DNA of 64,000 nt from Minisyncoccota bacterium (GCA_041659785.1 JBAZXO010000001.1:241649-305648); one strand, 5' to 3'. Positions 54 to 49,206 are shown, numbered from the stretch's first letter. Translations and numbers: made by a program. The notes: a model not told the origin generated them from the sequence alone.

Positions 54-1616
54 ATGAAAAAGGTAGTAATTTATTGTCGAGTTAGTTCTGTAAAACAAAG
101 TACTGATGGTCATGGACTTGATAGTCAAGAGCATCGTTGTAGAGAATATGCAAAGCAAAAAGGCTACAGCGAACCTGTAAAAGTTTTTAGAGATAGCTTT
201 TCAGGTGGTGGAGATTTTATGAATAGACCCGCGATGTCTGCTCTTTTGGCTTACTTAGATAAAGAACCAGCAACAAATTTTATAGTTATTTTTGATGACT
301 TAAAAAGATTTGCTCGTGATACTATATTTCATCTTAAATTAAGACAAGAGTTTGATGCCAGAGGAGCAAAAGTAGAATGTCCCAATTTTACTTTTGAAGA
401 TACTCCTGAGGGAAACTTTATAGAAACTATTTTAGCTTCACATAATGAATTAGAAAGAAAACAAAATCAAAGACAAGTTATTCAAAAACATAAAGCTCGT
501 CTTGAAAATGGTTATTGGTCTTTTACTTCACCTGCGGGATACAAAATGGGGAAAAATCCTATACATGGTTATCTTCTAAACAGAGTGGAGCCAGAAGCTA
601 GTATTGTGAAAGAAGCACTTGAAGGATTTGCTAATGGAAGATTTGAAAATCAAGTCGAGGTTCAGAGTTTCCTTCAACTAAAAAAGTTTCGTAATCTTAA
701 GAAGGTTAGTCTGGATTCAGTTAAAAGACTTCTTACTCGTGTTGTATATGCTGGGTATATAGAATATAAAGAATGGGGTGTAAGCAGAAGAATAGGACAC
801 CATGAACCTATAATTAGTTTAGAAACTTTTGAGAGGATTCAAGACAAATTAAATGGAAAGATAAAAATATTCTCAAGAAAAGATAACAATAAAGAGTTTC
901 CACTTAGAGGTTTTGTTTTGTGTGCTGAGTGCATAAAACCGATGACTGCGAGTTGGACTACTGGCAGAAATAGGAAACATCCTTATTATCATTGTAAAAC
1001 AAAGACATGTCAGATAAGAGGTAAAACAGTTAAAAGAAAGGAAATTGAGGAAAAATTTGAAGCTATCCTGCGTTCTATAAAACCCAAAGAAAAGACTTTG
1101 GCACTTACAAAAGAAATATTACTTGATGTGTGGAACAAGAGGCTTGCAAGCTTAGATAGCTTAAAAAGAAATCATGAAAATGCTTTAGACGAGGTTAGGG
1201 TAAAAATTAGAAACATGATTGATAGACTTTCAAAAACTGAAAATGAGAGTCTAATAAGGACTTACGAGAAAGAATTAGAAAAACTTAGTAATGAGGAACA
1301 AATACTAGAAAATCAGGCGGAAGTCATGAGAAGTAGAAAGCAAGACTTTGGAACCGCCCTAGATGTAACTTTCGATTTTATTAAAAACCCTTATCTTTAT
1401 TGGAAAAAATACGACCTAAAATCAAAACACCTAGTGTTGAAACTGGTGTTTGAAGACAGAATTATTTATGACAGACAAAATGGATTTGGAACCACTAAAC
1501 TAGCTTTACCCTTAAGGGTATTTGAGCTAAATCAGCTAAGTGATTCTATCGATGTGGACCGTACAGGACTCGAACCTGCCACCCCCTCATTGCAAATGAG
1601 GTGCTCTACCAGATGA
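54..1616 (+). CDS. Large serine recombinase (resolvase/invertase-type N-terminal catalytic domain, recombinase domain, zinc ribbon, coiled coil)
   Basis: N-terminal VIYCRVSSVKQSTDGHGLDSQ motif (catalytic Ser). 520 aa. Cys cluster CAEC...HCKTKTC. TATAAT-like box at 41-46. Confidence 0.85.
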   Translation: MKKVVIYCRVSSVKQSTDGHGLDSQEHRCREYAKQKGYSEPVKVFRDSFSGGGDFMNRPAMSALLAYLDKEPATNFIVIFDDLKRFARDTIFHLKLRQEFDARGAKVECPNFTFEDTPEGNFIETILASHNELERKQNQRQVIQKHKARLENGYWSFTSPAGYKMGKNPIHGYLLNRVEPEASIVKEALEGFANGRFENQVEVQSFLQLKKFRNLKKVSLDSVKRLLTRVVYAGYIEYKEWGVSRRIGHHEPIISLETFERIQDKLNGKIKIFSRKDNNKEFPLRGFVLCAECIKPMTASWTTGRNRKHPYYHCKTKTCQIRGKTVKRKEIEEKFEAILRSIKPKEKTLALTKEILLDVWNKRLASLDSLKRNHENALDEVRVKIRNMIDRLSKTENESLIRTYEKELEKLSNEEQILENQAEVMRSRKQDFGTALDVTFDFIKNPYLYWKKYDLKSKHLVLKLVFEDRIIYDRQNGFGTTKLALPLRVFELNQLSDSIDVDRTGLEPATPSLQMRCSTR

Positions 1617-5377: not shown

Positions 5378-5415
5378 AAAAAAAAAAGTTGCTAGGTAAG
5401 ACCTAGCAACTTTTT
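5378..5415. terminator. Bidirectional rho-independent terminator
   Basis: A10-GTTGCTAGGTaagACCTAGCAAC-T5. Confidence 0.65.
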
Positions 5416-8400
5416 ACGCAACAAAATTCTCATTAATAATTCCCTTCTTCGCATCTATTAAACCAGAAGTATAAACAGTAGTATATGATTCATCTGGATT
5501 CTTGCGGTCTATGGTAATGTGATATTCGCCTTTAGCAAGCAGACAATAATAATGACCATATTTATCAGCAACACGGTGGAAGATTTCTTGCGGGAAGCCT
5601 TTTCTAAAGACACGAATGACAGCATATGATAAAGGAGCTTTAGTTGCAGAATCGATAATAGTACCGAAGGTCTTAGGTTTGAAACCAAGTAAGTGGAGAG
5701 CCAAAAGAATACCATAGACGATAAGGATAGCTAAGTTAAGTTTGTCTGGTCGAGATATGAAAAGTCCAATGACAGAGATGAGTCCTATATAGAAGAGAGC
5801 ATTTAGAGCAGCGTTAATGATGCGTGTATTCTTAGAGTAAAACATCATAAGTTTCTTATCTCTCTTCGCAAATTCATTCCAGTCGAAAGCGAGAGGGTCC
5901 ATCGGAATGTTTTTAATGATAACTTCGTTTGTACCCAAAAGAACTTCCCCGCCAAAATATAAATTATCATAAAGTTCATCACTCATTTTACCAGCAAGTT
6001 TTGCTGAAGGAGCTCGATAGTTAGTCTTCTTTGTAGAAATTTGATATGAACCAGGAGGAACAAGGAAACCAAAACGTCCATCCAGGTCTGTAATCGCTGT
6101 TTGAACTTCTTTACCAGTATTATCATTTAAAACTACATAAACTGGATCAAGTGGTTGTTTGGTGACACTGTCGTATACAGTTCCCCATGGCGCGCGTTTC
6201 TTTCTTAGGCCAAGAGACACAAGTAGGACACTCCAGAGTCGTAATATCATAAATGGGATATCTGCAAAAGAAGCTGCTTCTCCACCTACAGAGGCAAGCG
6301 CAATAGCACTACCTCCCCCTGCTCCGAGGGCTGTGACTGTAGTCGTTGTGGCGTTACCTACCGGTGTATCAGAAAATTCAGTAATATTTTTTCTAGTTGT
6401 AGTGATAGCTTTTTTGATTTCGGGTGTAAGAATAGAATTTACTAAATTAGATATAATTGTTTGTCCTGAATCAATAGAAGAATTACCTTCACCAGAACTT
6501 GAGCCACCAACACCAGAACTTCCTGCTCCACCTCCAGTGCCAGCACCTCCGCTTGTTCCAGTTCCACTTCCGGCACCAGAGCCTGATCCACCGGTGCTAC
6601 CACCCGTACCTGATCCACCGCCTGCGCCAGAAGAACCACTTCCCCCCGTTCCTCCACTTGTTCCAGAGCCTCCAGTTCCTCCTCCTGTTCCAGAGCCTCC
6701 ACTAGTATCTTCTCCACTTGTACCACTTTCTACTGTTACAACAACGCTTCCACTTCCTGTTCTTCCAAGACCACCAGTACATGTAAGAGTATACGTATAA
6801 ATTCCAACAGGAAGAGGGTTTGTCGTATAAGTTCCTGAGCCTTCTGTTGATCCAGACCAGTTTCCAGATTTTATACAACCATTAGTTACATTTTGCGTTG
6901 AAAATGTAATGACTGATGTCCCATTGACTGGAATAGATGTTGGATTGGCAGTAACGGTGACAACTGGAGCAAGGGGTGTTTGAAAATCTGTAATATTTTT
7001 AGTTGTAAAGGATAAAATAGAACCTTCAACTTTTCCACTTGAATTCTTCGCAACAGCGCGGAAATAATATGTAGTGTTCTTTGTGAGACCAGAAATCGTA
7101 TCAGAAAAATCACTAACAGCAGATCCTTGGCTGTTATGCGTCGTTTCATTATTTAAAATAGTTTCAGATGTTCCCCACTCAAACCAGCGTGTCGTATCAG
7201 AAGTGCCATTAGGATCCACATTCCCATTGAGTGTTGCATCTGTATCTGTAATAGATGTTGCACTGTTCGTTATAACTTTTGGTGTTTGCAAAATTATTCC
7301 ACCTCCGCCCGTAGGAGAAGGCGCACCAACATTTGTATCATATGATACTGTTACAGAAGATAATGTGGGCGTAGCAGCTCCGCCAGAAGAGAGAAATGCT
7401 TTATATTGAAAATATCTATCATTATCGCTAATAGTAAGAGGATGATTTGAAACAAAGGCAATATCGTTGTTTGCATCAAGGAAATAATCAGTACCATCAC
7501 AGGCTAAAGCAGGCCCGCACCAATTTGACCAGGTGACATTGTCTGCCGAAGAACGTACTTGAAATTTTACAATTTCAGTGGAAGATGTTCCACTAGTTGC
7601 CCAGGCTAATTTTGTAACTTTGTTTGTTGCAGAACTAGAATCAAAGACCGATGAAGTGAGGTTTCCACTTGCACCATACTGCGAATAATTTATGGTGACA
7701 TCACTTAAGGCGGGAGTGACAGTAGTATCGGTAGTGGCAAGGTTAGCACGATATTGAATATAACGATTACCAGCAAGTGCGCCAATACTTCCTCCACTAA
7801 CTACATTTGTCGTCCAAGCTGTCCATGTACCATCCGGTATAGCTACATTGCCTGCTCGCACATCCACTGTAATACTGGTAAGTGCAGGTAATGTCGTTGT
7901 GTATGCAAGAGTTGTAAAATTTGCTTTTGCTCCTGTGTCTATTACCGCAGAAGTGAAGGTGCCGGAAGCTGCGTACGCAGTAGCAATATTAACTTTACTG
8001 ACAATATTGTCAAAACCACTTGAAACCCACATTGAGTCTGTAAAACTATCAAAAATAAGATTACCTGGACTAGTGCCAACAATATAAGTGTTCAAAACAG
8101 CACCGGTATTGATATCAATTTGACTAATTGTATTATCCACAACATTTGGTGTCCATATTGAACTATTCAAATCATCAAAAGCGGGATAATTGGGACCAAT
8201 GCCAACAGCATAAGTACCGACTATGGCTCCAGTACTAACATTAACTTTAATAACTGTATTATTATTTGCATCTGTGACCCACACAGAATTTGTAATACTA
8301 TCAAAAACTACGCCGCCAACACCAGATGTACCCACAGTGTACGTGCCCAGAACAGCACCAGTCGTAGCATTAAGTTTAATAAGATTATTACTAACAGTAC

Positions 8401-9262
8401 TACTTGTTACCCACACAGAGCCTGTAAAACTATCAAAAGTAATACCAATTGGACCATCAATTACATAATCATTTTTTGTACCCGTATTTATATCTACTTT
8501 GCTAACAGTGTTTGCGCCAAAACCCAAGTTTGCAACCCACACTGAGTTGGTCAAACTATCAAAAGTAATATCTTGCGGTCCTAAACCAACAGCGAAAGTG
8601 CCAACAATAGCACCAGTATTTACATTAATTTTACTAATATTGTCACTACCACTATTTGTCACCCATATGGAGTTAGTAACAGTATCAAATGAGAGACGTG
8701 AAGGTCCAATTCCAACAGTATAAGTACCAACAACAGCACCAGTCGTAGCATTAAGTTTAGTAACTGTGTTACTTCCATTGTTCGCCACCCAAATAGAATT
8801 AGTAACATTATCAAAAAGCACACCAAAAGGACTAGGGCCTACAGCATAATCAGTCTTGGCGCCAGCAGAAGAAGAAGCAGAAAGCCCTACGCTCGCTCCG
8901 ACACCTGAACCAGAAACTACTGTGCTGGAATTTGTGCCATTTGTAAATCCTCCTCCAGAAACTATAGGAGAAGCTGGAGTGATGCTTGTAGTGCCGTCGT
9001 CAGTAAATGCATAGCTAGTAGATGGCAGAGTAACAGTAGCAGATGCTGAAGTTCCTGTTTCTGTATTGTATTCTGTCCAGCCTGTTTGGTTGAGCGCATG
9101 CGTAGCAGTGTTTACTGTGGCTCCACCTAACCAAGATGACTGGAGAAAAGTCGCTGCAGCCGCTTGAGTGAGTTTACCGTAGAAAAAAAGACCGCTCATC
9201 CCTGCGAATATTATTGCAAAGGTTGCGAGAATAAATTGTATAGATGCGTGGCCTTTTTTCAT
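5414..9262 (-). CDS. Large surface protein. N-terminal signal/anchor, YVTN-type beta-propeller repeats, Gly/Ser/Thr-rich linker, C-terminal membrane segments interleaved with two CarboxypepD_reg-like domains.
   Basis: Repeats of the ~40-aa motif VGxxPxxIxFDxxTNSIWVxN. Low-complexity SGGSGTGGGTGGSG run. VYDSVTKQPLDPVYVVLNDNTGK...DGRFGF matches the carboxypeptidase-regulatory-like fold. Hydrophobic helices near the C-terminus. Confidence 0.75.
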   Translation of the reverse strand: MKKGHASIQFILATFAIIFAGMSGLFFYGKLTQAAAATFLQSSWLGGATVNTATHALNQTGWTEYNTETGTSASATVTLPSTSYAFTDDGTTSITPASPIVSGGGFTNGTNSSTVVSGSGVGASVGLSASSSAGAKTDYAVGPSPFGVLFDNVTNSIWVANNGSNTVTKLNATTGAVVGTYTVGIGPSRLSFDTVTNSIWVTNSGSDNISKINVNTGAIVGTFAVGLGPQDITFDSLTNSVWVANLGFGANTVSKVDINTGTKNDYVIDGPIGITFDSFTGSVWVTSSTVSNNLIKLNATTGAVLGTYTVGTSGVGGVVFDSITNSVWVTDANNNTVIKVNVSTGAIVGTYAVGIGPNYPAFDDLNSSIWTPNVVDNTISQIDINTGAVLNTYIVGTSPGNLIFDSFTDSMWVSSGFDNIVSKVNIATAYAASGTFTSAVIDTGAKANFTTLAYTTTLPALTSITVDVRAGNVAIPDGTWTAWTTNVVSGGSIGALAGNRYIQYRANLATTDTTVTPALSDVTINYSQYGASGNLTSSVFDSSSATNKVTKLAWATSGTSSTEIVKFQVRSSADNVTWSNWCGPALACDGTDYFLDANNDIAFVSNHPLTISDNDRYFQYKAFLSSGGAATPTLSSVTVSYDTNVGAPSPTGGGGIILQTPKVITNSATSITDTDATLNGNVDPNGTSDTTRWFEWGTSETILNNETTHNSQGSAVSDFSDTISGLTKNTTYYFRAVAKNSSGKVEGSILSFTTKNITDFQTPLAPVVTVTANPTSIPVNGTSVITFSTQNVTNGCIKSGNWSGSTEGSGTYTTNPLPVGIYTYTLTCTGGLGRTGSGSVVVTVESGTSGEDTSGGSGTGGGTGGSGTSGGTGGSGSSGAGGGSGTGGSTGGSGSGAGSGTGTSGGAGTGGGAGSSGVGGSSSGEGNSSIDSGQTIISNLVNSILTPEIKKAITTTRKNITEFSDTPVGNATTTTVTALGAGGGSAIALASVGGEAASFADIPFMILRLWSVLLVSLGLRKKRAPWGTVYDSVTKQPLDPVYVVLNDNTGKEVQTAITDLDGRFGFLVPPGSYQISTKKTNYRAPSAKLAGKMSDELYDNLYFGGEVLLGTNEVIIKNIPMDPLAFDWNEFAKRDKKLMMFYSKNTRIINAALNALFYIGLISVIGLFISRPDKLNLAILIVYGILLALHLLGFKPKTFGTIIDSATKAPLSYAVIRVFRKGFPQEIFHRVADKYGHYYCLLAKGEYHITIDRKNPDESYTTVYTSGLIDAKKGIINENFVA

Positions 9263-9367
9263 TATTTTTATTATATCATAGCAAAAAAATAAAATGCAAA
9301 TCCCCTCACCCCTTTCTTTCCCCTCTCCATAATTTTAATTATGGAGAGGGGTTGGGGAGAGGAGAAT

Positions 9368-12300
9368 CTATGGAGCAACTGGTGCAGGGTCAGGAGCAGG
9401 AGCAGGCGCTGGTGCAGGATCTGGTGTAGGCGCTGGGTCAGGGACGGGTACAGGATCTGGTGCAGGCGCTGGGTCAGGGACGGGTACAGGATCTGGTGCA
9501 GGCGCAGGATCTGTACAAACATTATTTACTAAAGTTTGTGGAGCTGTACAAGTTGGAACTACTGGTACTGGATCAGGTGTTGGAGCAGGAACAGGGTCGG
9601 GTACGGGGGCTGGAGCTGGTGAAGGATCTGGAGTAGGTGTTGGTGTAGGAGTTACACTAGCACCAGCATTAGAGATCAGAGCATCAAGTTGCGCTTTTGT
9701 AATACATGTCTTCCCTCCTACGTCATCGGTTACACACAAAGACTTCGTATTGACTTGTCCTGCAAAAATATCCCCTATCCCATTCGTAGCATCTGCTAAC
9801 CAAACAGTAACTTTTGCAAAAACATTTTTAAAGAATGCAGTAGCGAAAGATTCTGAAGGAGAACCTGGTAATGGGGTGACGGTACCTGCGACTCCTTCAA
9901 TATTTAGATTCATTTCTTGAATTGCTTTGACCGTGGTAGACAATATAGCATTCGTGTCTAATCCATAAGGCTTACCTTCTGCATCATGAGAGGCATATTC
10001 TGGAGAAATAGCAGCGACTTCTTCAGAGATGAATCCGAAATGGATTGCACTTCCCATATTCATCTCAGGCTTAAAGGTGTAAGAAACGGGACGAAGGTTC
10101 ATTAAGCTAGAGAGACCATTGTTTAAATCTGTTATGTCATTTTTAAATCTTTGAGAAGATATGGTACAGATTATATCTCCTGAAGCATTTGCAGATAGCG
10201 TTCCAGCTGTCGTACAACCTTTCTGCTGGACAACTCCTGTGTTCGTGACACTAAACTTAGACACTGATCCCACCTGTGCATCAATCAGAAGCTGAGCGCC
10301 TGAGCCGACAGCTGTTTCTGTTCGGTTTATGAGCAAGTCTGTGTTGGCGGCAGTGCTGGCGACTTGGTTATATGTTGGAATAATTGAAACAGCAGAACCT
10401 GCACCAGCTGTATTTGTAGAAGTGCTACGTCCTAGATTTATTGGAAATGTCCCATTTGTTCCACTACCCCCAACATAACGAATATCTCCATTGGTTAAGA
10501 CGTTATTTATATTCGCACCACCAACAATACTTGTGTAACCGTCTGAACCTCTTACACTAAACTTACTTACCCCTCCCACCTGCAAATCCATAAAAAGTGA
10601 AGCTCCATTGCTTGCTGTATTCGTTACATTTAATTTAATGGCAGTGGGTGTTCCTGTCGTATTCCAAGTTTGTGCAAGATTGAGAACAGACCCTGCGAGT
10701 GAGCCTGAGCCTGCGAGGGTGGTGTCAAGGATGTCGAGTTTAGAAGCAGGTGTCGTCGTTCCGATGCCGACGTTGCCAGCGAAATAATTAGTGCCACCTG
10801 CTGAATAAATAGCATAATTGCTTGTGCTACCCTTCGTTACATTACCTATATATAAACCGTAGTCATTGGTGACTGCACCAGTTCCAGTTATGTCATCAAG
10901 TTTGACACCATAAACATTTGTCAGTGTCCCCGCCCCAGTGATAGTTGGAAATGAATGAAACCCAACAAACCTATCGGTAACATTAGCACTACCATTAAAA
11001 ATATTTCTTGCTTGGTATGCAACAAAATGGTTTTCTGCCAAACCATTAGTAAGAGTCGCATGGGCATCGAAATCAGCGTAACCAAGATTAGTATCTGTTG
11101 TATTTAAAACTGACCAATCTTCGAATGCATGTCTGTCAATTGTTGTTCGAGTAGCATTTACAGAAAAATTACCATACGTGGTTGAACTACCAACAGAAAT
11201 GTCTCCACTTGAATTTATTCTAAGACGCTCGGTCGCATTTGTTCCGAAAACTAACGGGGTGGCACCAGTCGAATATATTTCTAAATCATTAGCTTGTGAT
11301 GAATTTTGAATAATTTGAACAGGAAACGTCAGCCCGCTAATACCAGCATCGGATTTATGTCTAATCACCAACGATTGATTGCTAGCAATACGCCCTGAAG
11401 CAAATGAACCACCGGTCGTCGTATTGTTCGCATTCCCACTTCCGTCAGAAACTATATCCAACTTAAATCCCGGGCTCGTCGTCCCGATGCCGACGTTGCC
11501 AGCAGTATCTATCGCCATTTTTGCACCTTCACTATCATCTATATGAAAATATAACGGTGCGTTAGTTGCACTATTAGAAGAATGAATATTTAGGTCATAT
11601 GGCGAATCAATGTTTTTTCTGATTTTAGCGTTTAACCCAGAACCTGAAGAAACTCCATTACCTCCTAGATAAAACGAGTTACTTCCAGCAGCAGAATAAG
11701 AAAAAATTTCACCAAGAACTTGCAATTTAGTTAGTGGTGCGGTGGTCCCTATTCCGACGTTGCCACTTTTTAAATATATAGCGGGGGAATCAACAGCACT
11801 ACCTCTTGTTCCTATAACTCCAATGGTTGGGGTAACTCCGTTATCAACATTTATTGACCCAACGTAAGTTGAATAATCGGGGTTATTATTAAATCCTATA
11901 TCTATTCTTCCTTGTGGAACAGTCGGAGATGTCCCTGTAGTACCAGTTATCCATAATTTTGAATTTGTGGGAATAGTAGTACTCCCTCCTGAATTTGAAC
12001 CAATACTTAACAAAGCCCCTGGCGCCGTCGTCCCGATGCCCACATTCCCCGTACTCCCTACTTGAAGTCCAGTATAAGCAATATTGTAAGCTTGGGAGGC
12101 GACAGTTTGAGAAGTTGAAACAGTGAGGCTTGTGGTTGAGCCAAATGCAGTAATTGTTCCTGCACTTGTTCCGTTTGCAAATACGAACTGTGAACCCACC
12201 ATTGCTGAAGTCCACACTGTACCCACGCCTGTGACAGTGGTGAGAGATTGTGATGCTGTACCTGTACTGTATTGGGTTGGGGTGACGGAGAGGATGCCAC

Positions 12301-15300
12301 TTGGTATGACCGTTCCAATCCCTACAGAACCCTTTAATGCAGTTGTAAGAATGCTATCATTTCCAAGAACAACACTATTGCTACCTATGCCTATTGCACT
12401 TGCTCCGATAACTATCTGATTCGTCTGTCCATCTGCATTTGCTTTTGAATCATTGCCTAAAAATAATGAACTTGAACCTATGGAATTTGAAGAGAAACCA
12501 TCAGCAATAAATCTTCCAGCATTGTAGCCTACCGCTGAATTATTAGAGCCTGTGGTGTTGGCCCTAAGAGCAAAGGTGCCTATAGCATTGTTATTAATAC
12601 CAGTTGTATTGAATCGGAGGGATTGATAGCCCATAGCATTATTACTACTACCAGAAGAGTTGGCAGCAAGAGATTCGGCCCCCAGAGCACTATTATTTCC
12701 TCCACTGCTTGCTGAAGCAAGAGCACTAGCACCAACAGCAGTATTATAGCTGGTACCGTTAGAATAAAGCGCTTGATAACCAATAGCTGTGTTGTTACCT
12801 CCGGCGACATTAGAGAATCCACTTTGATAACCTACGTAGGAATTATAATAATTCGCAGTTCCCGCTTGATAACCTAAAGAAGTTAAAAATGATGCATTAT
12901 CAAAATCAATTAATCCTGCCACTTGTAGAAGGTTGTTCGGTGTTATCGTACCGATACCAAGATTTCCATTAACCGTCAACTGTTGCCCTGTGAGTGATCC
13001 AGCTACACCAGAGAATTTACCATACAAAAGCGAGAATGCTTTATCGTTAGCTAAAGAAGATTGTTGTACATTGTTTATATAAAAAGCATTTGAACCTGTT
13101 TCGTATTTACCAGCTCCGTATCCTAATGCAACATTACCACTTCCAGTACTGTTAAGGAGAAGCGAATTGGCTCCGTTAGCTGTATTATTATTACCAGTAG
13201 TATTGTTACCCAAGGCACTTATACCATTAGCCACATTCTGGACTCCAGTGGTATTTAAAAAAAGAGTCTGATAACCAACAGCTACATTTGAATATCCGGT
13301 AGTATTAGAAAAAAAAGATTGAAAACCAATTGCAGTGTTATAACCTGCTATACTGGTACTTCCTACCGCAGAAGATAACCCTGTTTGGTAACCAATAAAA
13401 GTATTATTAATTGCACCTGCAACTATGTTCTTCCCAGCTTGATAACCAAGCTTGGTATCAAAATCTGTATTATTAAAATCAATTAAGTTTGCTACCTGGA
13501 TTAAATTGTTCGGCGTCGTCGTCCCTATCCCCACATTTCCGGTACTCCCCACCTGAAGTCCCGTATACCCAATATTGTAAGCTTGTGATGCGACAGTTTG
13601 AGAAGTTGAAACAGTGAGGCTTGTGGTTGAGCCAAATGCAGTGATTGTTCCTGCACTTGTTCCGTTTGCAAATACGAACTGCGAACCTATCATAGCGGAA
13701 GTGAATGTCGTACCTACACCAGTGATTGTAGTCAAAGATTGTGACGCTGTGCCTGTACTGTATTGGGTAGGGGTGACGGAGAGGATGCCAGCAGGAACAA
13801 GAGTTCCAATACCCAAGTTTCCATTTATTGTTAACTGTTGTCCTGTGAGAGATCCAGCTACACCAGAGAATTTACCGTAGAGGAGAGAATAATTTCGATC
13901 ATTAGCTAAAGAAGGTTGATATATATTGTTTACATAAAAAGTATTGGAACCGGTTTCGTTGTAGCCAGCTGCAAGTCCCAAGGCAACATTGCTATTCCCT
14001 GTGGAGTTATTGTTGAGGGCTTGCATTCCACTAGCGGTATTATAGGAGCCTGTGGTGTTGGATGTAAGAGCATACATTCCACTCGCGGTGTTTTGAGTAC
14101 CTGTGGAGTTATTGTAGAGGGCTTGCATTCCACTCGCAGTATTGTAGGAGCCTGTAGTGTTGGAGAAAAGAGCATACGTTCCACTAGCGGTGTTGAAATT
14201 GCCGTTGGTGTTGGAGTATAGGGCCTGCACTCCACTGGCAGTATTATAAGAGCCTCCAGTGTTAGAAAAAAAAGATTGATAACCAAATGCACTGTTAAAA
14301 TCTGCAGCACTAGTACTTAATGTTGCGCTAGATGTTCCTGCTTGATAACCAATAAAGGTATTATTTTGAGCATTAGCTACTATATTTTTTCCTGCTTGAT
14401 ATCCAAGCTTGGTATTAAAATCTGTATTATTAAAATCAATTAAGTTTGCTACCTGAATAGCGTTGTTGGGTGTTATTGTCCCTATCCCTACTCTGTGGTT
14501 CAGACTATCCACAAAAAGAGAGCTAGTATCTACGGTAAAATTATGAACTCCCAAATCTACATTGGATGTTCCGCCGGTGTAAGGAATATATCCTGAAAGA
14601 TCTAGCACTAAATTCCCGCTACCTAAAATAGAACCGCCATTGATAGTTTTGATATTTGTACCTGAAACTAGAGTGGCTTGTTTGTTATTAAAAGTATTCC
14701 AGTCAGTGGTTGTTAAATATCCATCTACCAATGTCGTAGCAGCGCCTAATTTTGTTTTAATAGTAGCTTGTGTTTCATCACCAGTGTTCGTGCCTGAAGA
14801 AGTACCTGAGAAAGTTCCTGATTGAGTAGCCAGAGTCCCAAGCACGGTAGTATCTAAAGCGAATGTACCAGCAGCAGTCATTTTTACAAAAGATGGTGAT
14901 ACATATGACAGGCCAGATACAGAAGTTAAATTTGCAGAAGAATCTTGTTTCCCATTAAAAGTATTCCAATCCGTATTTGAAAGTGCGCCTGTGGTAGAAG
15001 TGGAAGCTAAGGCTAAGGAGAGTACTTGTGTAGCAAGCGAAAGACCATTTGCTGTACCAAGTGTTACGGGATTATGGTTACTAGCTACTAAGGTTTCTAT
15101 CTGATTATATACAGCATTCTTAGACGGTGCATGAGTCGTGTCAGCATTCCAGCTCACGCCGTAAGCTACATCGCTAATACTCGTAGAAGTAAGTGGTGAA
15201 CGAACATCACAGTTTACATCTGTCGGTAAACATTCTGGGTTTAAAGTATCACCCGGATTATAGAAAGTGCCATTCCATACTGCGAAAACTGTTTTAGAAA

Positions 15301-15385
15301 AAAGAGAAATGACAATAATAGCCATAGCTAAAATAATCCTTTTTCTCATTGATGTATTTTTTATTTTTGAAAATATATTTTTCAT
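9368..15385 (-). CDS. Giant (2005 aa) secreted tail-fibre-like repeat protein with a C-terminal peptidase S74 / intramolecular chaperone auto-processing domain and a Pro/Asp/Ala-rich tail
   Basis: Signal peptide. Dozens of NTAxGxxALxxNTTG and GNVGIGTTTP repeats. SSQRFKNDI...LRPVSYTFK...HFGFISEEVAAISPE...LDTNAILSTTVKAIQE matches the endosialidase/tail-spike chaperone domain. C-terminal PTPTPDPSPAPAPVPDP repeats. Confidence 0.8.
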   Translation of the reverse strand: MKNIFSKIKNTSMRKRIILAMAIIVISLFSKTVFAVWNGTFYNPGDTLNPECLPTDVNCDVRSPLTSTSISDVAYGVSWNADTTHAPSKNAVYNQIETLVASNHNPVTLGTANGLSLATQVLSLALASTSTTGALSNTDWNTFNGKQDSSANLTSVSGLSYVSPSFVKMTAAGTFALDTTVLGTLATQSGTFSGTSSGTNTGDETQATIKTKLGAATTLVDGYLTTTDWNTFNNKQATLVSGTNIKTINGGSILGSGNLVLDLSGYIPYTGGTSNVDLGVHNFTVDTSSLFVDSLNHRVGIGTITPNNAIQVANLIDFNNTDFNTKLGYQAGKNIVANAQNNTFIGYQAGTSSATLSTSAADFNSAFGYQSFFSNTGGSYNTASGVQALYSNTNGNFNTASGTYALFSNTTGSYNTASGMQALYNNSTGTQNTASGMYALTSNTTGSYNTASGMQALNNNSTGNSNVALGLAAGYNETGSNTFYVNNIYQPSLANDRNYSLLYGKFSGVAGSLTGQQLTINGNLGIGTLVPAGILSVTPTQYSTGTASQSLTTITGVGTTFTSAMIGSQFVFANGTSAGTITAFGSTTSLTVSTSQTVASQAYNIGYTGLQVGSTGNVGIGTTTPNNLIQVANLIDFNNTDFDTKLGYQAGKNIVAGAINNTFIGYQTGLSSAVGSTSIAGYNTAIGFQSFFSNTTGYSNVAVGYQTLFLNTTGVQNVANGISALGNNTTGNNNTANGANSLLLNSTGSGNVALGYGAGKYETGSNAFYINNVQQSSLANDKAFSLLYGKFSGVAGSLTGQQLTVNGNLGIGTITPNNLLQVAGLIDFDNASFLTSLGYQAGTANYYNSYVGYQSGFSNVAGGNNTAIGYQALYSNGTSYNTAVGASALASASSGGNNSALGAESLAANSSGSSNNAMGYQSLRFNTTGINNNAIGTFALRANTTGSNNSAVGYNAGRFIADGFSSNSIGSSSLFLGNDSKANADGQTNQIVIGASAIGIGSNSVVLGNDSILTTALKGSVGIGTVIPSGILSVTPTQYSTGTASQSLTTVTGVGTVWTSAMVGSQFVFANGTSAGTITAFGSTTSLTVSTSQTVASQAYNIAYTGLQVGSTGNVGIGTTAPGALLSIGSNSGGSTTIPTNSKLWITGTTGTSPTVPQGRIDIGFNNNPDYSTYVGSINVDNGVTPTIGVIGTRGSAVDSPAIYLKSGNVGIGTTAPLTKLQVLGEIFSYSAAGSNSFYLGGNGVSSGSGLNAKIRKNIDSPYDLNIHSSNSATNAPLYFHIDDSEGAKMAIDTAGNVGIGTTSPGFKLDIVSDGSGNANNTTTGGSFASGRIASNQSLVIRHKSDAGISGLTFPVQIIQNSSQANDLEIYSTGATPLVFGTNATERLRINSSGDISVGSSTTYGNFSVNATRTTIDRHAFEDWSVLNTTDTNLGYADFDAHATLTNGLAENHFVAYQARNIFNGSANVTDRFVGFHSFPTITGAGTLTNVYGVKLDDITGTGAVTNDYGLYIGNVTKGSTSNYAIYSAGGTNYFAGNVGIGTTTPASKLDILDTTLAGSGSLAGSVLNLAQTWNTTGTPTAIKLNVTNTASNGASLFMDLQVGGVSKFSVRGSDGYTSIVGGANINNVLTNGDIRYVGGSGTNGTFPINLGRSTSTNTAGAGSAVSIIPTYNQVASTAANTDLLINRTETAVGSGAQLLIDAQVGSVSKFSVTNTGVVQQKGCTTAGTLSANASGDIICTISSQRFKNDITDLNNGLSSLMNLRPVSYTFKPEMNMGSAIHFGFISEEVAAISPEYASHDAEGKPYGLDTNAILSTTVKAIQEMNLNIEGVAGTVTPLPGSPSESFATAFFKNVFAKVTVWLADATNGIGDIFAGQVNTKSLCVTDDVGGKTCITKAQLDALISNAGASVTPTPTPTPDPSPAPAPVPDPVPAPTPDPVPVVPTCTAPQTLVNNVCTDPAPAPDPVPVPDPAPAPDPVPVPDPAPTPDPAPAPAPAPDPAPVAP
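9400..9520. repeat. ~30-bp tandem repeats encoding the Pro/Asp/Ala-rich C-terminal tail
   Basis: ggtgcaggcgctgggtcagggacgggtacaggatct is repeated head-to-tail. Confidence 0.7.
12021..12300. repeat. Intragenic ~280-bp direct repeat (second copy 13513..13792, ~90% identical)
   Basis: Long near-identical stretch, e.g. cagtttgagaagttgaaacagtgaggcttgtggttgagccaaatgcagt. The antisense ORFs 12123..12419 and 13614..13880 in the track translate almost identically. Confidence 0.8.
13990..14260. repeat. Tandem ~60-bp repeats encoding NTASG-type 20-aa repeats
   Basis: gcttgcattccactagcggtattataggagcctgtggtgttgga units recur four times. Confidence 0.7.
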
Positions 15386-15425: not shown

Positions 15426-15794
15426 TTACTTCTGAATTTTACTTATCAAAATACCCAAAAGTGTTTTCACGCTATTTTGCGCCTCTGCCTCAGTCTTGCT
15501 AGCGGTAAAATTCTGCCATTCTTTCATTATCTGTTCATCTTTCAAATCTCGAACTGCGTTTTCTAAAGAAAGCCTCGTCTCGAAATCAACTTCTGTATTT
15601 GCTTGTAATACTTTCTTGATAAACAAGGAAGTGAAGTTCAATACTTTATCATTTAATTCAAGCTTACTTTGAGTGGATTTTATTGTTTGTAATTCTTGGT
15701 TGGCAAAATAATAATTAAGCCCGAAAAAAGCGTTACCTATAACAAGTGCCCCAATGATTATAATAATTGAAATGCGATTTTTATTTTCTATCAT
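15426..15794 (-). CDS. Small membrane-anchored hypothetical protein
   Basis: 122 aa with an N-terminal TM helix. Confidence 0.5.
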   Translation of the reverse strand: MIENKNRISIIIIIGALVIGNAFFGLNYYFANQELQTIKSTQSKLELNDKVLNFTSLFIKKVLQANTEVDFETRLSLENAVRDLKDEQIMKEWQNFTASKTEAEAQNSVKTLLGILISKIQK

Positions 15795-15833: not shown

Positions 15834-17852
15834 TTATACCCGGTAGTAGAGCTTTTTGCAAAGTCTCACTACCGGGTTATACACTAATAATAATAAGACA
15901 ACAAACAAAAGAACCGTCTTCCAGTCAAGACTAGACAGGAAACTTCGACCAGATTTCATCTCGATATTTTGGTGTACACCACTACCTTCCTCCACTAAAA
16001 AAACTTTACCTTGATAAGTGTCATATCCAGGAGCTACTACTTCGAAATAATACGAACCCCCAGGGACCAAGAATGAATAAGTACCTCTGATGTCAGTAAC
16101 TTGTGGGTTTTCTTGTTGGTAATCTTTTGCGGGCCATAATTCATATTTTTTTGTAGAATTATTTAGATAATATAAAGAAACAATGGCTGAAGGGATACGT
16201 GTTTCCTTTCCATCTGTCTTTTCAAAGACATATCCTTCTGGGTCAACGACAGTTATCATTCTCATTTGGCGAGTACCAAGTACAGGGTCCACATAATTTA
16301 TAACAGTGATCACTTCATACTCACCTGGTACGACAGGAGTCGCCACATCCGCTGTGTATATGCCGTCACCATCAGGGTCCGTATATTCAAAAGAAGAAAG
16401 TACTAATTTATTTTCTACCACCTCACCCGGCCTTTGGCCACCCTCTCCTGTCAGGAGAGGGGCTGGGGGTGAGGTTTTTTCTACCAAATCATTCGTAGAA
16501 AATAGAGCTGAAGCGGTGAGCAAAGAACGAGAAATTATATTTTGAGTAATTTTAGGTGTAGCGGATTTAAAAACAAAATACCCAGTTACACTTTTTGCTT
16601 TACTTATTGGTTTTACCACCAGCTTGAGTGTCTGCCCAGGTAATGAAGATATCTGCTGAGTTACATCTCCTTTTTTCCCTACTGACAAAGCGACATTTAA
16701 ATCAACCAACTCTCCGGACGTTCTGGCGAAAACGAATTCAGATGGTAAATTTTTCTTTTCAGAAAGAGAAAACTTTGCTAAAGGTAAACCTTGAACGAGA
16801 GCAATCTTCCCTGTGCCCACACTTTTCTTCAATTGCCCATTTATATCAGAGAGACCAGGAATATTTAAGCCTACACCATTTAATTTATTTATGTCAGATA
16901 ACCTCTCTACTCCAGTGCCTTTGAGAGTATTAGTGAGCGCGGTGAGTCCGGGAAGGTTTAAGGTTACGCCATTTAATTTACTTATATCAGTCAATCTTTC
17001 TATGCCTACGCTCTTCAATGTATTAGCAAGTTCTGGAAATTTACTAGCAAGAACACGTACCTCATACGGCAATGGAGCAAAGACGAATTGATTAATAGCT
17101 TTTACGGGTAAGATATACCACTTTGTTTTAAATGAAGGTGGTGCAATTTTAGGAATTTCTATAGCTACTGCTTGTGGAAGTGTTTTTGGTCTAAAGAAAT
17201 TTAAAAAGAAATCCAAGGCAGAAACGGATGTAGATTTTATAGTTTTACCAATCTCATTTGTTACCGTCACAACTGGATTCTCGACTGGTGGAGTTACTGG
17301 TGTCGGCGTAGGTGTTGGATTGGATGTCCAGGGTGGATGTCCTCCGCCTCCTCCGCCGCCCCCACTAGTAGATCTAAGGCTTGCTTTTTTCCAATCTGTT
17401 TTTACTTTAAAGTTTGCCGCATTGCAAGAATCTATGGTTGTACAACTAAAATTAATTCTACTATTGTCAGACTTTACAGATGCATAACCTGAAAAGTATC
17501 CTTGCTCATCTATAGTAACTCCAGTAAAGTTAATCCAGCCAAGATTTGAGCTCCATGCATATCCAGAAAGCACTCCCTCTCCATTGTTTTTAACTCCCGA
17601 AGTAGATGGGTTTAATTTTATCCAACCAAATTGCCTGTTCCAAGCAAAGCCTGAAATATCAGTATCCGTAACACTTACGTTGCAGTTATTACAACCAAAG
17701 TTTAACCAGCCAATATTTTCTCCCCAAGCATATTTGTATGTTCCGTCAATCGTCCCATTCGTCTCCGAGGCAAAAGCATGAGGCACAAAAAAAATCATAG
17801 AAACTAAAATTCCCAAAAGAAATACCTTTCCTTTAATTAAATTAACTGCCAT
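15834..17852 (-). CDS. Secreted repeat protein. N-terminal GW-x-NF repeats, poly-Gly/Pro-Thr linker, leucine-rich-like ~40-aa tandem repeats, a CarboxypepD_reg-like domain and a C-terminal TM anchor.
   Basis: Signal peptide. GGGGGGGGHPPWTSNPTPTPTP. Two copies of VERLxDIxKLNGVxLNxPGL. IRGTYSFLVPGGSYYFEVVAPGY. Hydrophobic C-terminus. Confidence 0.7.
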   Translation of the reverse strand: MAVNLIKGKVFLLGILVSMIFFVPHAFASETNGTIDGTYKYAWGENIGWLNFGCNNCNVSVTDTDISGFAWNRQFGWIKLNPSTSGVKNNGEGVLSGYAWSSNLGWINFTGVTIDEQGYFSGYASVKSDNSRINFSCTTIDSCNAANFKVKTDWKKASLRSTSGGGGGGGGHPPWTSNPTPTPTPVTPPVENPVVTVTNEIGKTIKSTSVSALDFFLNFFRPKTLPQAVAIEIPKIAPPSFKTKWYILPVKAINQFVFAPLPYEVRVLASKFPELANTLKSVGIERLTDISKLNGVTLNLPGLTALTNTLKGTGVERLSDINKLNGVGLNIPGLSDINGQLKKSVGTGKIALVQGLPLAKFSLSEKKNLPSEFVFARTSGELVDLNVALSVGKKGDVTQQISSLPGQTLKLVVKPISKAKSVTGYFVFKSATPKITQNIISRSLLTASALFSTNDLVEKTSPPAPLLTGEGGQRPGEVVENKLVLSSFEYTDPDGDGIYTADVATPVVPGEYEVITVINYVDPVLGTRQMRMITVVDPEGYVFEKTDGKETRIPSAIVSLYYLNNSTKKYELWPAKDYQQENPQVTDIRGTYSFLVPGGSYYFEVVAPGYDTYQGKVFLVEEGSGVHQNIEMKSGRSFLSSLDWKTVLLFVVLLLLVYNPVVRLCKKLYYRV

Positions 17853-17888
17853 AAATTAGTACCCTTATATTATACCAACAGAGCAAAA

Positions 17889-19286
17889 TTACCTCAAGTA
17901 TCCTTTTAAAAATTCCTCTTTAAACTCAAAGAATTTATCATCTAAAATTGATTGTCTGATTTTTTTAACTAAATTTACAATAAAATATAAATTATGAATT
18001 GATGCCAGTGTCCCCGCGAGCATTTCTTTGCCATGGAAAAGGTGCGCGATATAGGCGCGAGAGTATCGTGGAGTACCAGAAGTTTCTTTGCGGGGTGTCT
18101 CGCAGGCTGACGAGCCGAGAGGCAGCGCTGTGTCAGCAGACACAGACAGCGACCCCGAAAAGAAATCTTCTGGCGCGGAGCAAACATAACATCCACAATC
18201 ATCTTCGATAGGACCAAGGTCATTTCTGAATTTTGCATTGGTAATTATTATTTTCCCCTTTTTAGTATAAATAGTTCCATTTCTCCCGAGCCGAGTCGGC
18301 AAAACGCAATCAAATAAATCCACACCATTTTCTATGCCCATAAATAAATCTTCTGGCTCACCGATGCCGAGCAAGTGCCTAGGTTTGTCTTCTGGAAGAA
18401 TTTCATTTACCCATTTTACAGCGGTAGACATATCTTCTTTCGCAAAGCTCCCCCCAATACCGAAACCATCGAAATATTTTCCTTCCACATTTATTTCCGA
18501 AATAATTTTCGCAGATTGTTTACGTAAAGATTCTTCTCGCCCACCCTGCACGATACCAAAAAGAGCCGGATCAGAAACAGAAGCGGACGAACGGTCGACG
18601 TTGCGAAGCAGGAGATCCTGAGAATGCTTCTGTTTCTGAGTTAATAATTTTTGATGCTCTCTTAAACTCCTCTCTGCCCAACGATGTGTACGCTCGAGCG
18701 CCTCGCCTTGATATTTCGAATCCTCTGTCGGAGAAGTACATTCATCAAAAGCAAAAATTATATCTGCGCCTAAGTTGTGTTGAATTTGAATTGATTTCTC
18801 GGGAGTGATGTAATGGATAGAGCCGTCCAAGTGAGATTTAAAAGATACACCATCTTGACCAATTTTCGCCAGGCGTGGCGCATCACTGTCGTCAAAACGT
18901 TCAGGGATCAAAAGTGATGGGTCAGTTATTTTCGTAATTTTTGAAATATCTTTCCCGTAGGCAGCACCAAGTGAAAAAACTTGAAACCCTCCACTATCCG
19001 TCATAGTGGGCGCAATACCGCCATCATTTCGCCGCCAATTCATAAAATTACCAATACCTCCTGCGTCACGTACTATCTCGTCGCCTGGCTGTAAATATAA
19101 ATGATAAGTATTACCGAGCACTACTTGCGTGCCAGCATCCCTCACCTGCTCGGGATTTAAAGATTTCACTGTAGCCTTAGTGCCCACAGCGACAAAAGCT
19201 GGAGTTAAAATATCTCCATGCGGAGTAGTTATAATTCCCACCCTTCCCAGACCATCTTTTAATTTTTTTTCTATTTTGAAAATCAC
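17889..19286 (-). CDS. tgt: Queuine tRNA-ribosyltransferase
   Basis: GRVGIITTPHGDILTPAFVAVGT, VVLGNTYHLYL, CGCYVCS zinc site, LPTRLGRNG. Confidence 0.85.
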   Translation of the reverse strand: MIFKIEKKLKDGLGRVGIITTPHGDILTPAFVAVGTKATVKSLNPEQVRDAGTQVVLGNTYHLYLQPGDEIVRDAGGIGNFMNWRRNDGGIAPTMTDSGGFQVFSLGAAYGKDISKITKITDPSLLIPERFDDSDAPRLAKIGQDGVSFKSHLDGSIHYITPEKSIQIQHNLGADIIFAFDECTSPTEDSKYQGEALERTHRWAERSLREHQKLLTQKQKHSQDLLLRNVDRSSASVSDPALFGIVQGGREESLRKQSAKIISEINVEGKYFDGFGIGGSFAKEDMSTAVKWVNEILPEDKPRHLLGIGEPEDLFMGIENGVDLFDCVLPTRLGRNGTIYTKKGKIIITNAKFRNDLGPIEDDCGCYVCSAPEDFFSGSLSVSADTALPLGSSACETPRKETSGTPRYSRAYIAHLFHGKEMLAGTLASIHNLYFIVNLVKKIRQSILDDKFFEFKEEFLKGYLR

Positions 19287-40201: not shown

Positions 40202-40612
40202 TTTTAAAATTTATTCAATTGCTTTCTTTGGGATTCTCTTCATCATCTCTATTTTAGTCTGAGGACCAACTTTACCGTCAGCAGTTAATCCATTGTCACT
40301 TTGCCATTTCACAATTACTGCAATTGTCTTAGGTCCTAACTTACCGTCTAATACTAAACCAAGACCTAGATCATCATTAAGGAATCTCTGTAGTTCTTTA
40401 ACTGCATCTCCTTTACTTCCAACCTTAAGAGTAGAGGTACCGAAGTCGTAAGTTAAGGCTCCTGAACCTTGTGAAGGAGTTTGATTTGAGTTGTTTACAC
40501 AGAGTTGACCTGTTTGAGTGTTGTAGATGTTTCCTCCAGAGCAACCGAGTGCTGGTGGTGTTGGAAACTTTGTACAAGATTCTCCTGTTTGGGTATTGAA
40601 GAGGTTACCATC
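40202..40612. repeat. ~410-bp perfect duplication (3' coding end plus downstream flank of A1, equals 43328..43738 of A2)
   Basis: Identical sequence starting ttaaaatttattcaattgctttctttggg through ...ttgaagaggttacc. Confidence 0.85.
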
Positions 40613-41377
40613 AGAGCAGCCTTGTGGTGATGGAGGTGGATTTTGAGATTGAGTTTGATTTGGAGTTGTGCAAACATTATTAATTAACACTTGTGGTGGT
40701 GTACAGGTAGGTGGTGGGGTGCTGACAGTTCCAGAAGCTCCAATGTTTAAAACTACACTGCCTGTTTCACCTACTGTTTCACCTAAGGTATTTAATACAC
40801 CAGATGCGCTAGAATCTATAATGTTTCCAGTCCAATATGGCTGATAACTGCCAGTTACGGTGGGTAAAAGATCAGAACGAATAGCATGGAAATAGAGATT
40901 TATCATATATGATCCTGTAGGTATCGTTGTTGCTTTAGTGTAACAATTCCATCCTGTATCCAAGGAAGGAATACGGCATGGACTTGAAAAAGATTGATCA
41001 CGGTTTGGATCAAGAATGTATGCAGTACCTACATTCCATAAATAACTTCCAGTGTTAGGTACATTGTCTGCCACAAGGTAATAAGTTGTAGGTATTTGTG
41101 ATATTTGTTGACTGCTAGGACTAGATGTAGTACTAGGTTTTGTCAGAATTATTTGACCTTTTACGCTATCTTTAAGACCAGTTGTTCTCCAGTTAATTGT
41201 TTGACTACTTCCAGATGCCCATGTGCTATTGGTCGTTGGTGAAGTAATAGTTGCAGTTAATTCTGACGCAGTTGGATTAGGAACAGTCTGTGCTTTTATA
41301 ACAGATGTAGAATATCCTACCCCAAACAAAACAACTAAAACGAGAAGCGATATTTTTATATTTTTAAATATTTTCAT
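40211..41377 (-). CDS. Secreted cell-wall-binding protein, paralog A1 (signal peptide, Kre9/KNH-like Ig domain, CxxGxxxNTQTGxxC repeats, C-terminal PG_binding_1)
   Basis: ITSPTTNSTWASGSSQTINW...NVPNTGSYLWNV. LKVGSKGDAVKELQRFLN...DGKLGPKT...DGKVGPQT. Confidence 0.8.
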   Translation of the reverse strand: MKIFKNIKISLLVLVVLFGVGYSTSVIKAQTVPNPTASELTATITSPTTNSTWASGSSQTINWRTTGLKDSVKGQIILTKPSTTSSPSSQQISQIPTTYYLVADNVPNTGSYLWNVGTAYILDPNRDQSFSSPCRIPSLDTGWNCYTKATTIPTGSYMINLYFHAIRSDLLPTVTGSYQPYWTGNIIDSSASGVLNTLGETVGETGSVVLNIGASGTVSTPPPTCTPPQVLINNVCTTPNQTQSQNPPPSPQGCSDGNLFNTQTGESCTKFPTPPALGCSGGNIYNTQTGQLCVNNSNQTPSQGSGALTYDFGTSTLKVGSKGDAVKELQRFLNDDLGLGLVLDGKLGPKTIAVIVKWQSDNGLTADGKVGPQTKIEMMKRIPKKAIE

Positions 41378-41455
41378 AATCTTGTCCGCCTCTGGCGGAT
41401 TTATTAACTTACTAATAATTTATTAACTAATAATAATATTGACCTTTTATAAAAT
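41326..41455. repeat. ~130-bp near-perfect duplication (5' coding end plus upstream region of A1, equals 45168..45294 of A2)
   Basis: Identical aacaaaacaactaaaacgagaagcgatatttttatatttttaaatattttcataatcttgtccgcctctggcggatttattaac... Confidence 0.85.
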
Positions 41456-43249: not shown

Positions 43250-43293
43250 AAGATCTAATATTAACTACTAATACAAATATTATATCACACATA

Positions 43294-43323
43294 GAAAAAA
43301 CCACTCTTAAAAGTGGTTTTTTC
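43294..43323. terminator. Rho-independent terminator after paralog A2
   Basis: AAAAAACCACTcttaaAAGTGGTTTTTT. Confidence 0.65.
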
Positions 43324-43336
43324 TAAATTTTAAAAT

Positions 43337-45220: not shown

Positions 45221-45294
45221 AATCTTGTCCGCCTCTGGCGGATTTATTAACTTACTAATAATTTATTAACTAATAATATTGACCTTTTATAATT

Positions 45295-49201: not shown

Positions 49202-49206
49202 TTTAG

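Follow-up and report, generated by a model that had tools for sequence, protein, structure and literature searches.

Cellular fibres that end in a chaperone domain of phage type are already known. The mosaic adhesive trimer (MAT) fibres of Bdellovibrio (Caulton et al., Nat Microbiol 2024, PMC10769870) are chromosomally encoded, mosaic trimeric fibres that carry a signal peptide and have a role in prey handling. All 21 have a conserved, beta-rich N-domain of ~130 aa after the signal peptide, and 13 of the 21 end in a Peptidase S74 domain, the intramolecular chaperone (ICA) domain. Self-cleavage has been demonstrated for one of these S74 fibres, Bd3182, at an SDxxxK motif (PMC10769870). Here we describe a fibre gene of this general kind in a 64,000-nucleotide stretch of DNA from a Minisyncoccota bacterium (GCA_041659785.1, JBAZXO010000001.1:241649-305648), referred to below as the window. 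The protein is identical to an automatically named NCBI entry from a 318-kb contig, 'MAG: tail fiber domain-containing protein [Candidatus Paceibacterota bacterium]'. NCBI taxonomy places Candidatus Paceibacterota within Minisyncoccota, i.e. among the Patescibacteria or candidate phyla radiation (CPR).

We assign a probability of about 0.6 to the reading that this gene encodes a Sec-exported surface fibre that is trimerised by its ICA domain, self-cleaved, and docked at its N-terminus, probably for attachment to a host. Three features are new. The fibre has a conserved N-terminal module of its own, unrelated to the MAT N-domain, directly after the leader. The gene is linked across species to two genes for membrane-anchored proteins, p672 and p122. 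The protein also continues past the ICA domain into a conserved Cys-hairpin and Pro-rich tail, absent from viral contigs. A first-pass annotation of the window, made from the sequence alone, had given the 2005-aa reading frame, and its coordinates and length hold; the frame is on the minus strand. The gene and its parts are as follows.

9368..15385, minus strand: fibre gene, 2005 aa, ATG start, identical to the NCBI entry
15281..15385, minus strand: Sec-type signal peptide, aa 1-35, with a basic n-region, hydrophobic core and predicted VFA/VW cleavage site
14936..15280, minus strand: conserved N-terminal module, aa 36-150, consisting of a cap and two blocks common to phage fibres
15200-15280, minus strand: Cys-loop cap (VWNGTFYNPGDTLNPECLPTDVNCDV), aa 36-62, the cell-specific portion of the N-terminal module
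11996..14491, minus strand: proximal shaft, aa 299-1130, with NTA.G modules and spacers, matching PHROG virion and tail-spike families
10160..11995, minus strand: distal shaft and tip, aa 1131-1742, with modules delimited by GNVGIGTT.P, matching PHROG tail-fibre families 9942 and 1980
9776..10159, minus strand: ICA / Peptidase S74 domain, aa 1743 to ~1870, from Pfam, the dyad, a structure model and structure matches
10157-10159 and 10142-10144, minus strand: Ser1743 and Lys1748, the S-x4-K positions of SSQRFK
9662..9763, minus strand: post-ICA module, aa 1875-1908, a beta-hairpin closed by Cys1884-Cys1894 plus a helix (LCVTDDVGGKTCITKAQLDALI)
9371..9661, minus strand: Pro-rich tail, aa 1909-2005, 97 aa, 41% Pro, with one CTAPQTLVNNVC disulfide loop

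Comparison with described fibres

The fibre shares several properties with the S74 subgroup of the MAT fibres (e.g. Bd3182). Both have a chromosomal, non-phage setting, a signal peptide, a conserved N-module, a long mosaic of beta modules that resemble those of phages and contain VGxGxxxP-type motifs, and an S74 domain with an S-x4-K pair at the C-terminus, and both occur in bacteria that live on other cells. Local similarity to one Bdellovibrio S74 fibre, L046, includes the S74 region (related loci are given L numbers throughout). Membership of the MAT family was nevertheless rejected, because the N-domain comparison failed and the protein does not end with S74. Residues 1-160 gave no blastp match at E<=1 to the N-termini of L046, L048, L058 and L044, which we took from taxon and architecture to carry the MAT N-domain and which match one another at 1e-15 to 1e-100. 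Whereas L046 ends 138 aa after its Ser, the present fibre continues for ~135 residues past the ICA domain. It is also roughly twice the MAT-typical ~1000 aa, belongs to a CPR organism that presumably lacks an outer membrane, and is strictly linked to p672 and p122; the parts of the MAT paper drawn on here make no mention of partner linkage (PMC10769870). A fibre-like reading frame of 4180 aa in a Candidatus Moraniibacteriota locus (L026 6362-18916) has an N-terminus that looks MAT-like by eye, with blastp non-significant either way. If that likeness is real, MAT-type N-domains would exist in CPR too.

Phage ICA fibres and tailspikes, such as the K1F/endoNF endosialidase (3GW6), T5 pb1 (4UW8/8HQZ) and the GA-1 neck appendage (3GUD), have the same ICA fold and Ser/Lys dyad, homologous fibre modules, and the same arrangement of a conserved attachment end with a variable distal part. 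Unlike them, the present protein has a Sec leader, disulfide loops and housekeeping neighbours, no virion genes lie around it, and its N-terminal cap and post-ICA tail are absent from viral contigs. The best match among solved structures is the ICA domain of myelin regulatory factor (MyRF, 7DC3; probability 1.00 over 121 aligned columns), likewise a cellular protein that has taken over the ICA domain of phages to trimerise and cleave itself. In MyRF, a membrane-bound transcription factor of eukaryotes, cleavage frees a DNA-binding trimer; unlike the present protein MyRF has no fibre, and the remainder of its sequence is unrelated. Several homologues of the fibre carry the JGI name trimeric autotransporter adhesin, and the protein does resemble that class in being a long, repetitive, presumably trimeric surface fibre with short-period beta-roll-like repeats. 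It differs in that its trimerisation device is the ICA domain and in that its organism presumably has no outer membrane. The trimeric autotransporter reading was rejected, since Pfam scans (E<=0.1) revealed no YadA-type beta-barrel anchor and no Hep_Hag/YadA head or stalk.

The C-terminal chaperone domain and its extension

The first-pass annotation had recognised the chaperone domain by eye, and the strings that it quoted are all present (SSQRFKNDI at 1743, LRPVSYTFK, HFGFISEEVAAISPE and AIQEM). The profile search that it proposed gave a significant match: PF13884 (Peptidase_S74, described by Pfam as "chaperone of endosialidase") aligns with aa 1743-1797 (nt 9995-10159) at E 1.2e-10, over profile positions 1-56 of 58 and with a score of 41.9 bits against a curated gathering cutoff of 22. 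PF13884 is the sole Pfam family found in the entire fibre at E<=0.1, and NCBIfam gave zero matches. A search with the full-length fibre returned 1633 homologues, many of them proteins of 1100-3350 aa with PF13884 at the end, from Paceibacterota, Elusimicrobia, Limnobacter, Bdellovibrionales and Bacteroidota. An alignment of the C-terminal region was drawn from the matches of this search. In it, 16 homologues of 36-72% identity have Ser1743 and Lys1748 without exception. The Ser/Lys dyad that the annotation had suggested looking for is present, and it lines up with the TSGIEYK cleavage motif of phage T5 pb1, although this alignment is weak taken alone. The dyad fits the SDxxxK motif that self-cleaves in Bd3182 (PMC10769870).

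A model of aa 1700-1912, computed as a monomer with AlphaFold2 (AF2), has a mean pLDDT of 68.8 and a core of 74-89, and it places an ICA fold, in which long helices come after a beta core, at the C-terminus of the fibre. When the model was compared with the PDB, the 11 best matches were all ICA domains (among them 7dc3, 3gw6 and 3gud) at E 2e-3 to 0.3, modest values of the kind expected when an intertwined trimer is modelled as a monomer. Comparison with predicted viral structures (BFVD) gave 121 matches at E<=1e-3, the best at E 4.9e-9; almost every named match at the top is an S74/ICA or tail-fibre protein of a phage or giant virus. The structure matches align over ~101-173 columns, typically 115-135, from which the ICA fold would span aa 1743 to ~1870; the Pfam model sees its first third only. 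For that reason the first-pass estimate of ~200 aa after the chaperone was too large: the extension consists of a Cys-hairpin and helix of ~35 aa followed by the 97-aa Pro-rich tail.

This extension recurs in many homologues, and in the 16-homologue alignment W1862, A1864, N1868, F1874, C1884, C1894, T1896 and L1903 are invariant. The post-ICA module was not found on viral contigs, where an alignment scan gave five weak matches, all within the S74 core.

The leader and the N-terminal module

The signal peptide was identified by reading the sequence rather than with a predictor. The only hydrophobic segment of the fibre (aa 15-38) is preceded by six Lys/Arg and followed by the VFA/VW site, where 13 homologues all keep the Ala at -1. 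The N-terminal signal peptide of the first-pass annotation stands on these features. The eight Cys of the fibre fall into four close pairs (52/59, 1724/1740, 1884/1894 and 1946/1957), and a DsbA-like gene is present in the window; together these are consistent with an exported fibre.

The first ~27 residues of the N-terminal module form the cap, with the consensus VWNGTFYxPGDTLNPECLPTDxDCDV. Two further blocks follow, ..APSKNAVYD.. and ..GALSNTDWNTFNGK (pattern ..GALS..DW..FN.K). The module is 73-82% identical among orthologues, and in the subset of homologues that have a post-leader module of ~115 aa the mean column identity is 80%. In a profile search of 1.84 billion representatives, the complete module invariably occupied residues ~27-150 of its protein. 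The top 150 matches fall into at least 32 distinct 50%-identity clusters, with proteins of up to 3085 aa. The two later blocks recur as internal repeats in thousands of proteins, viral fibre reading frames included. A scan of GTDB with one genome per species found the full module confined to 13 Patescibacteria genomes.

Linkage of the fibre to two membrane-anchored proteins

The fibre gene is the last of three genes on the minus strand, which are separated by gaps of 39 and 40 nt without a terminator-like site on that strand. The remaining features of this cassette are as follows.

17869..17897, minus strand: promoter-like site upstream of p672, TTGAGG-17-TATAAT with an extended -10 TG, a consensus match only
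15834..17852, minus strand: p672, a 672-aa type-I membrane protein with a signal peptide and a C-terminal transmembrane (TM) helix at aa 637-666
15426..15794, minus strand: p122, 122 aa, with an N-terminal TM helix at aa 6-30 and an extracytoplasmic region of ~90 aa, 40 nt upstream of the fibre
9301..9365, minus strand: terminator-like hairpin with a U-rich tract, immediately 3' of the fibre stop, from RNA folding (-43.3 kcal/mol, z = -5.3)

The hairpin escaped a consensus terminator scan and was revealed by RNA folding.

A p672 homologue, a p122 homologue and then the fibre follow one another in the same order and orientation in the window and in L001, L002 and L004-L015, scored only where sequence upstream of the fibre exists. 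Across these loci the partners are 55-67% (p672) and 62-80% (p122) identical. The cap motif (F/Y)xPG(D/E)TLNPxCxPxDxxCxV follows the leader in all of them and also in L080. At least eight cassette loci have none of the outer flank genes of the window within 10 kb, so the linkage is not mere regional synteny; a flank of MreB, MreC and TGT is common to L009, L013, L014 and L016 only, and L016 keeps only the N-terminal part of p672. Distant p672 homologues (38-46% identity) still precede a p122 homologue (48-52%), which makes the pair the older unit. In L080 the gene order is different: an S74 fibre of 1118 aa lies directly upstream of the p672-p122 pair, and it has the cap motif, DW..FN.K, NTA.G repeats, the Cys loop, S-x4-K, the ICA domain, ICLTGDDGETVCINKDQL and a Pro-rich tail. 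This conserved three-gene linkage across species is new.

In its AF2 model (mean pLDDT 63.6), p672 begins with an all-beta domain of GW(I/L)NF repeats with two Cys pairs (aa 30-160, pLDDT ~90), for which no family or fold match was found. After aa 160 a disordered Pro/Gly linker leads to Ig-like and transthyretin-like domains, and the C-terminal TM helix is followed by a basic tail. By Foldseek the Ig-like and transthyretin-like domains resemble adhesin and pilin stalks (SiiE, RrgA, SpaD) and the transthyretin-like domain of carboxypeptidase D, and the whole model retrieves only generic Ig-stalk adhesins and pilins. The p672 family has 659 detected members, whose sole functional name is "carboxypeptidase-like regulatory domain-containing". 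No significant family was found for p122. NCBIfam matches of p122 to FliS (E 0.015) and of p672 to S11 (E 0.09) are insignificant and were rejected as noise. The GW(I/L)NF domain stands alone in other Patescibacteria loci (L016, L021).

Fibres of another type also occur in these bacteria. A Candidatus Nomurabacteria locus (GCA_020631805.1, L003 10001-25574) has two S74 fibres of 1857 aa and at least 2059 aa less than 10 kb apart. At least the first lacks an N-module of the window type, and neither p672 nor p122 is nearby. CPR genomes therefore hold several classes of S74 fibre with differing N-termini.

A variable shaft between conserved ends

Between the N-terminal module and the ICA domain lies a repetitive shaft, as the first-pass annotation had proposed from its NTAxG and GNVGIGTTTP repeats. 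Both repeats far exceed shuffle expectation: NTA.G occurs 9 times against 0.29 in shuffled sequences, with a period of 17 aa (51 nt), and G[NS][VL]GIGT occurs 8 times against 0.002. In a tiled self-comparison, a beta-roll-like module with the 17-aa NTA.G period is present in three copies (aa 299-535, 618-822 and 804-1035), and a spacer module of ~125 aa in two (aa 504-633 and 1001-1130; 72-91% identity). The same comparison shows weaker repeats bounded by GNVGIGTT.P in the distal half, which is closed by a Cys1724-Cys1740 loop just ahead of the predicted cleavage site. The shaft duplicates are 74-85% identical in DNA and are therefore not assembly artefacts. The fibre as a whole is composed mostly of T, G, S and N.

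Successive parts of the shaft match PHROG virion structural, tail-spike and tail-fibre families. In a tblastn search of 50,697 phage records, the fibre matched those of Pelagibacter, Roseobacter, Methylophilales and cyanobacterial phages locally at 31-54% identity, and no single record covered more than 33% of it. The fibre is a mosaic assembled from the phage pool of fibre modules. With composition-corrected statistics, alignment between orthologues is restricted to aa 1-~200 and ~1500-2005; the ~1400-aa middle is swapped between orthologues, whose reading frames are between 996 and 2127 aa long. Pfam and NCBIfam scans of the fibre revealed no recognisable lectin or receptor-binding tip domain, and no toxin or enzyme domain was detected with Pfam, NCBIfam or PHROGs.

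Chromosomal context

The window is a housekeeping region of a bacterial chromosome. Its genes include TGT, MreC, MreB, two class II synthetases (tRNA-synt_2b), a PheS-type synthetase (tRNA-synt_2d), S2, EF-Ts, sigma-70, DnaG, RpoC, RpoB, TrmD, RNase R, SMC, RNase III, NusB, GyrB, a UvrD/AddA-type helicase-nuclease, OrnDC and DUF192. PHROGs gave zero matches in the immediate neighbours of the fibre, and no capsid, portal, terminase, tube, sheath, baseplate, assembly or lysis gene was found in the 64-kb window. The related loci are likewise without blocks of phage structural genes and sit among housekeeping genes. The first-pass view of a cellular, non-prophage gene without flanking structural or packaging genes is borne out in the window and, as it had suggested checking, in relatives, where the homologues are chromosomal with non-phage neighbourhoods across species.

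The only mobile-element gene near the fibre is that of a large serine integrase at 54..1616, 7.7 kb away. Its product has Resolvase, Recombinase and Zn_ribbon_recom domains and matches the phrog_95 integrase family (E 1e-68), and its 3' end runs into a minus-strand tRNA-Ala(tgc) at 1554-1627. Such an overlap is typical where an element has integrated. DUF192 and OrnDC, situated between the integrase and the fibre, also adjoin the fibre in L013 and L014; they are conserved chromosomal neighbours of the fibre, and any integrated element therefore lies left of the window.

The gene between the fibre and OrnDC, p1282 (5414-9262, minus strand), encodes a surface protein of 1282 aa, which combines a leader and YVTN-type beta-propeller repeats with a long Gly/Ser-rich linker, TM helices at the C-terminus and a domain of CarboxypepD_reg-like type. 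The gene has a TATAAT-like promoter box of its own, and the similarity of the protein to p672 is confined to a marginal transthyretin-like match (E 0.008). p1282 was rejected as a member of the cassette as it is missing from all 15 related cassette loci, which marks it as a genome-specific insertion.

Two further loci in the window are of note. Four tandem genes at 40211-46458 (minus strand; 388, 597, 627 and 387 aa) each end in PG_binding_1. Secreted proteins with peptidoglycan-binding domains are reported to be highly expressed in parasitic Paceibacteria (PMC10936435). At 48575-49869 (minus strand) a 184-aa pilin-like protein with an N_methyl motif adjoins a 220-aa IS200-like Y1 transposase.

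Proposed mechanism and alternative explanations

In the mechanism that we favour, Sec would export the precursor by means of its N-terminal leader, which would be cut at VFA/VW. The ICA/S74 domain, last to emerge, would join three chains and nucleate folding of the beta shaft, as is established for its family. Ser1743 and Lys1748, both of which are in place, would then cut the chain after Ser1743. The products would be a mature fibre of 1708 aa (aa 36-1743) with a disulfide-loop tip and a released fragment of 262 aa that comprises the ICA domain, the Cys-hairpin and the Pro-rich segment. Extrapolated roughly from Bd3182, the fibre would be about 100 nm long. The N-module would hold the fibre on the cell, where gene linkage makes p672, with its Ig-like stalk and distal beta domain, together with p122 the likeliest dock. 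By analogy with phage and MAT fibres, the interchangeable middle and tip may bind the surface of another cell, serving episymbiotic host attachment or recognition.

Several observations weigh against this mechanism. The P1' residue after Ser1743 is Ser in this subclade instead of the usual Asp (SSQRFK versus SDxxxK), and both AF2 models are monomers of moderate quality (mean pLDDT 68.8 for the C-terminus and 63.6 for p672). Pfam and hydrophobicity analysis revealed no LPXTG, SLH domain or second TM segment in the mature fibre; with no recognisable covalent or membrane anchor, that the fibre stays on the cell has to be assumed. Conservation of the post-ICA module equals or exceeds that of the ICA core, which is hard to square with a fragment that is simply discarded. 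The p672-p122 pair also stands in two loci where no S74 fibre adjoins it: in L079 the sole relative is a non-S74 protein of 426 aa that bears the cap motif and is encoded 4.4 kb upstream, and L081 has no comparable fibre within 10 kb. The pair therefore has a role independent of the fibre.

The same fibre, assembled in the same way, could instead belong to a structural or protective coat, whether as a fibrillar layer, as a spacer or as a decoy for phages that attack the organism itself, with no specific host receptor. The T/G/S/N-dominated composition is like that of many surface-layer fibrils, no lectin or receptor-binding tip domain was recognised, and the genomes in which p672-p122 is fibre-less suggest a general envelope role with the fibre as an accessory. 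We nevertheless regard a coat as unlikely. Conserved ends with a replaced middle and tip are what receptor-binding proteins under diversifying pressure have, and a uniform coat is not expected to vary in this way; moreover, phage fibres and MAT fibres, which come closest among characterised analogues, are adhesins (PMC10769870). A different arrangement would follow if the S74-like domain were a permanent, uncleaved trimeriser and the Pro-rich tail threaded the wall, so that the protein was held at its C-terminus with the N-module distal. An anchoring role had also been raised in the first-pass annotation, and the Ser at P1' and the conservation of the post-ICA module and tail within the family would fit it. 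Pro-rich segments commonly span Gram-positive-type walls, which also counts in its favour. Yet Ser1743 and Lys1748 are invariant even at ~35% domain identity, and the tail is followed by no terminal sorting signal, TM segment or wall-binding domain. The N-module is the most conserved part of this fibre and the part linked to the partner genes, and in phage and MAT fibres a conserved N-terminus is the attachment end (PMC10769870), so that a C-terminal hold on an uncleaved chain seems improbable to us.

The mature chain would have no predicted anchor once the leader and the S74 fragment were removed, which would suit a soluble trimer released to the medium as a lectin-like, bacteriocin-like or matrix protein. 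We find this very improbable, since the strongly conserved and always N-terminal module and the strict linkage to two membrane-anchored proteins argue for docking, and no toxin or enzyme domain was detected. Least credible of all is a tail-fibre gene, leftover or active, of a prophage, tailocin or other phage-derived particle. It is prompted by the homology of the shaft modules and S74 domain to phage proteins, by the NCBI name tail fiber domain protein, and by the serine integrase beside tRNA-Ala 7.7 kb away. That tRNA and the conserved neighbours DUF192 and OrnDC stand between the integrase and the fibre, however, and there are no virion genes across 64 kb. The protein has a Sec leader, for which a virion protein put together in the cytoplasm has no use; the cassette is kept at chromosomal loci in 13 species; and the partners, the N-terminal cap and the post-ICA module occur on zero viral contigs.

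Beyond the self-processing, N-terminally docked fibre itself, we tentatively suggest a broader idea, which we think rather unlikely. The p672-p122-fibre unit may be the host-recognition organelle of a large clade of CPR episymbionts of the Paceibacteria type, in which the membrane-anchored stalk of p672, with p122, would present interchangeable, phage-derived, self-processing trimeric fibres. Swaps of the fibre's middle and tip would set host range, as tail-fibre exchange does in phages, and the conserved post-ICA fragment would have a second job once cleaved off, for example as an assembly checkpoint or a wall-embedded product.

Implications for host attachment in CPR bacteria

To our knowledge, host recognition and attachment by CPR/Patescibacteria are largely unexplained outside the type IV pili of Saccharibacteria. 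The locus described here is a concrete candidate for attachment: a three-gene unit kept across species, with conserved docking ends and a hypervariable, phage-derived fibre. Cultured Paceibacteria attach to their hosts by undefined structures, with undefined material visible in micrographs (PMC10936435), and we found no paper that links S74 or endosialidase-chaperone domains to CPR bacteria. If the fibre is only a surface coat, it is no more than a typical representative of a class for which annotation already exists. If it does serve attachment, host-dependent bacteria would have recruited phage tail-fibre technology at least twice, in Bdellovibrio-type predators and in CPR, with differing N-terminal attachment, and metagenomic records of how the fibre varies could then serve to estimate host range by proxy.

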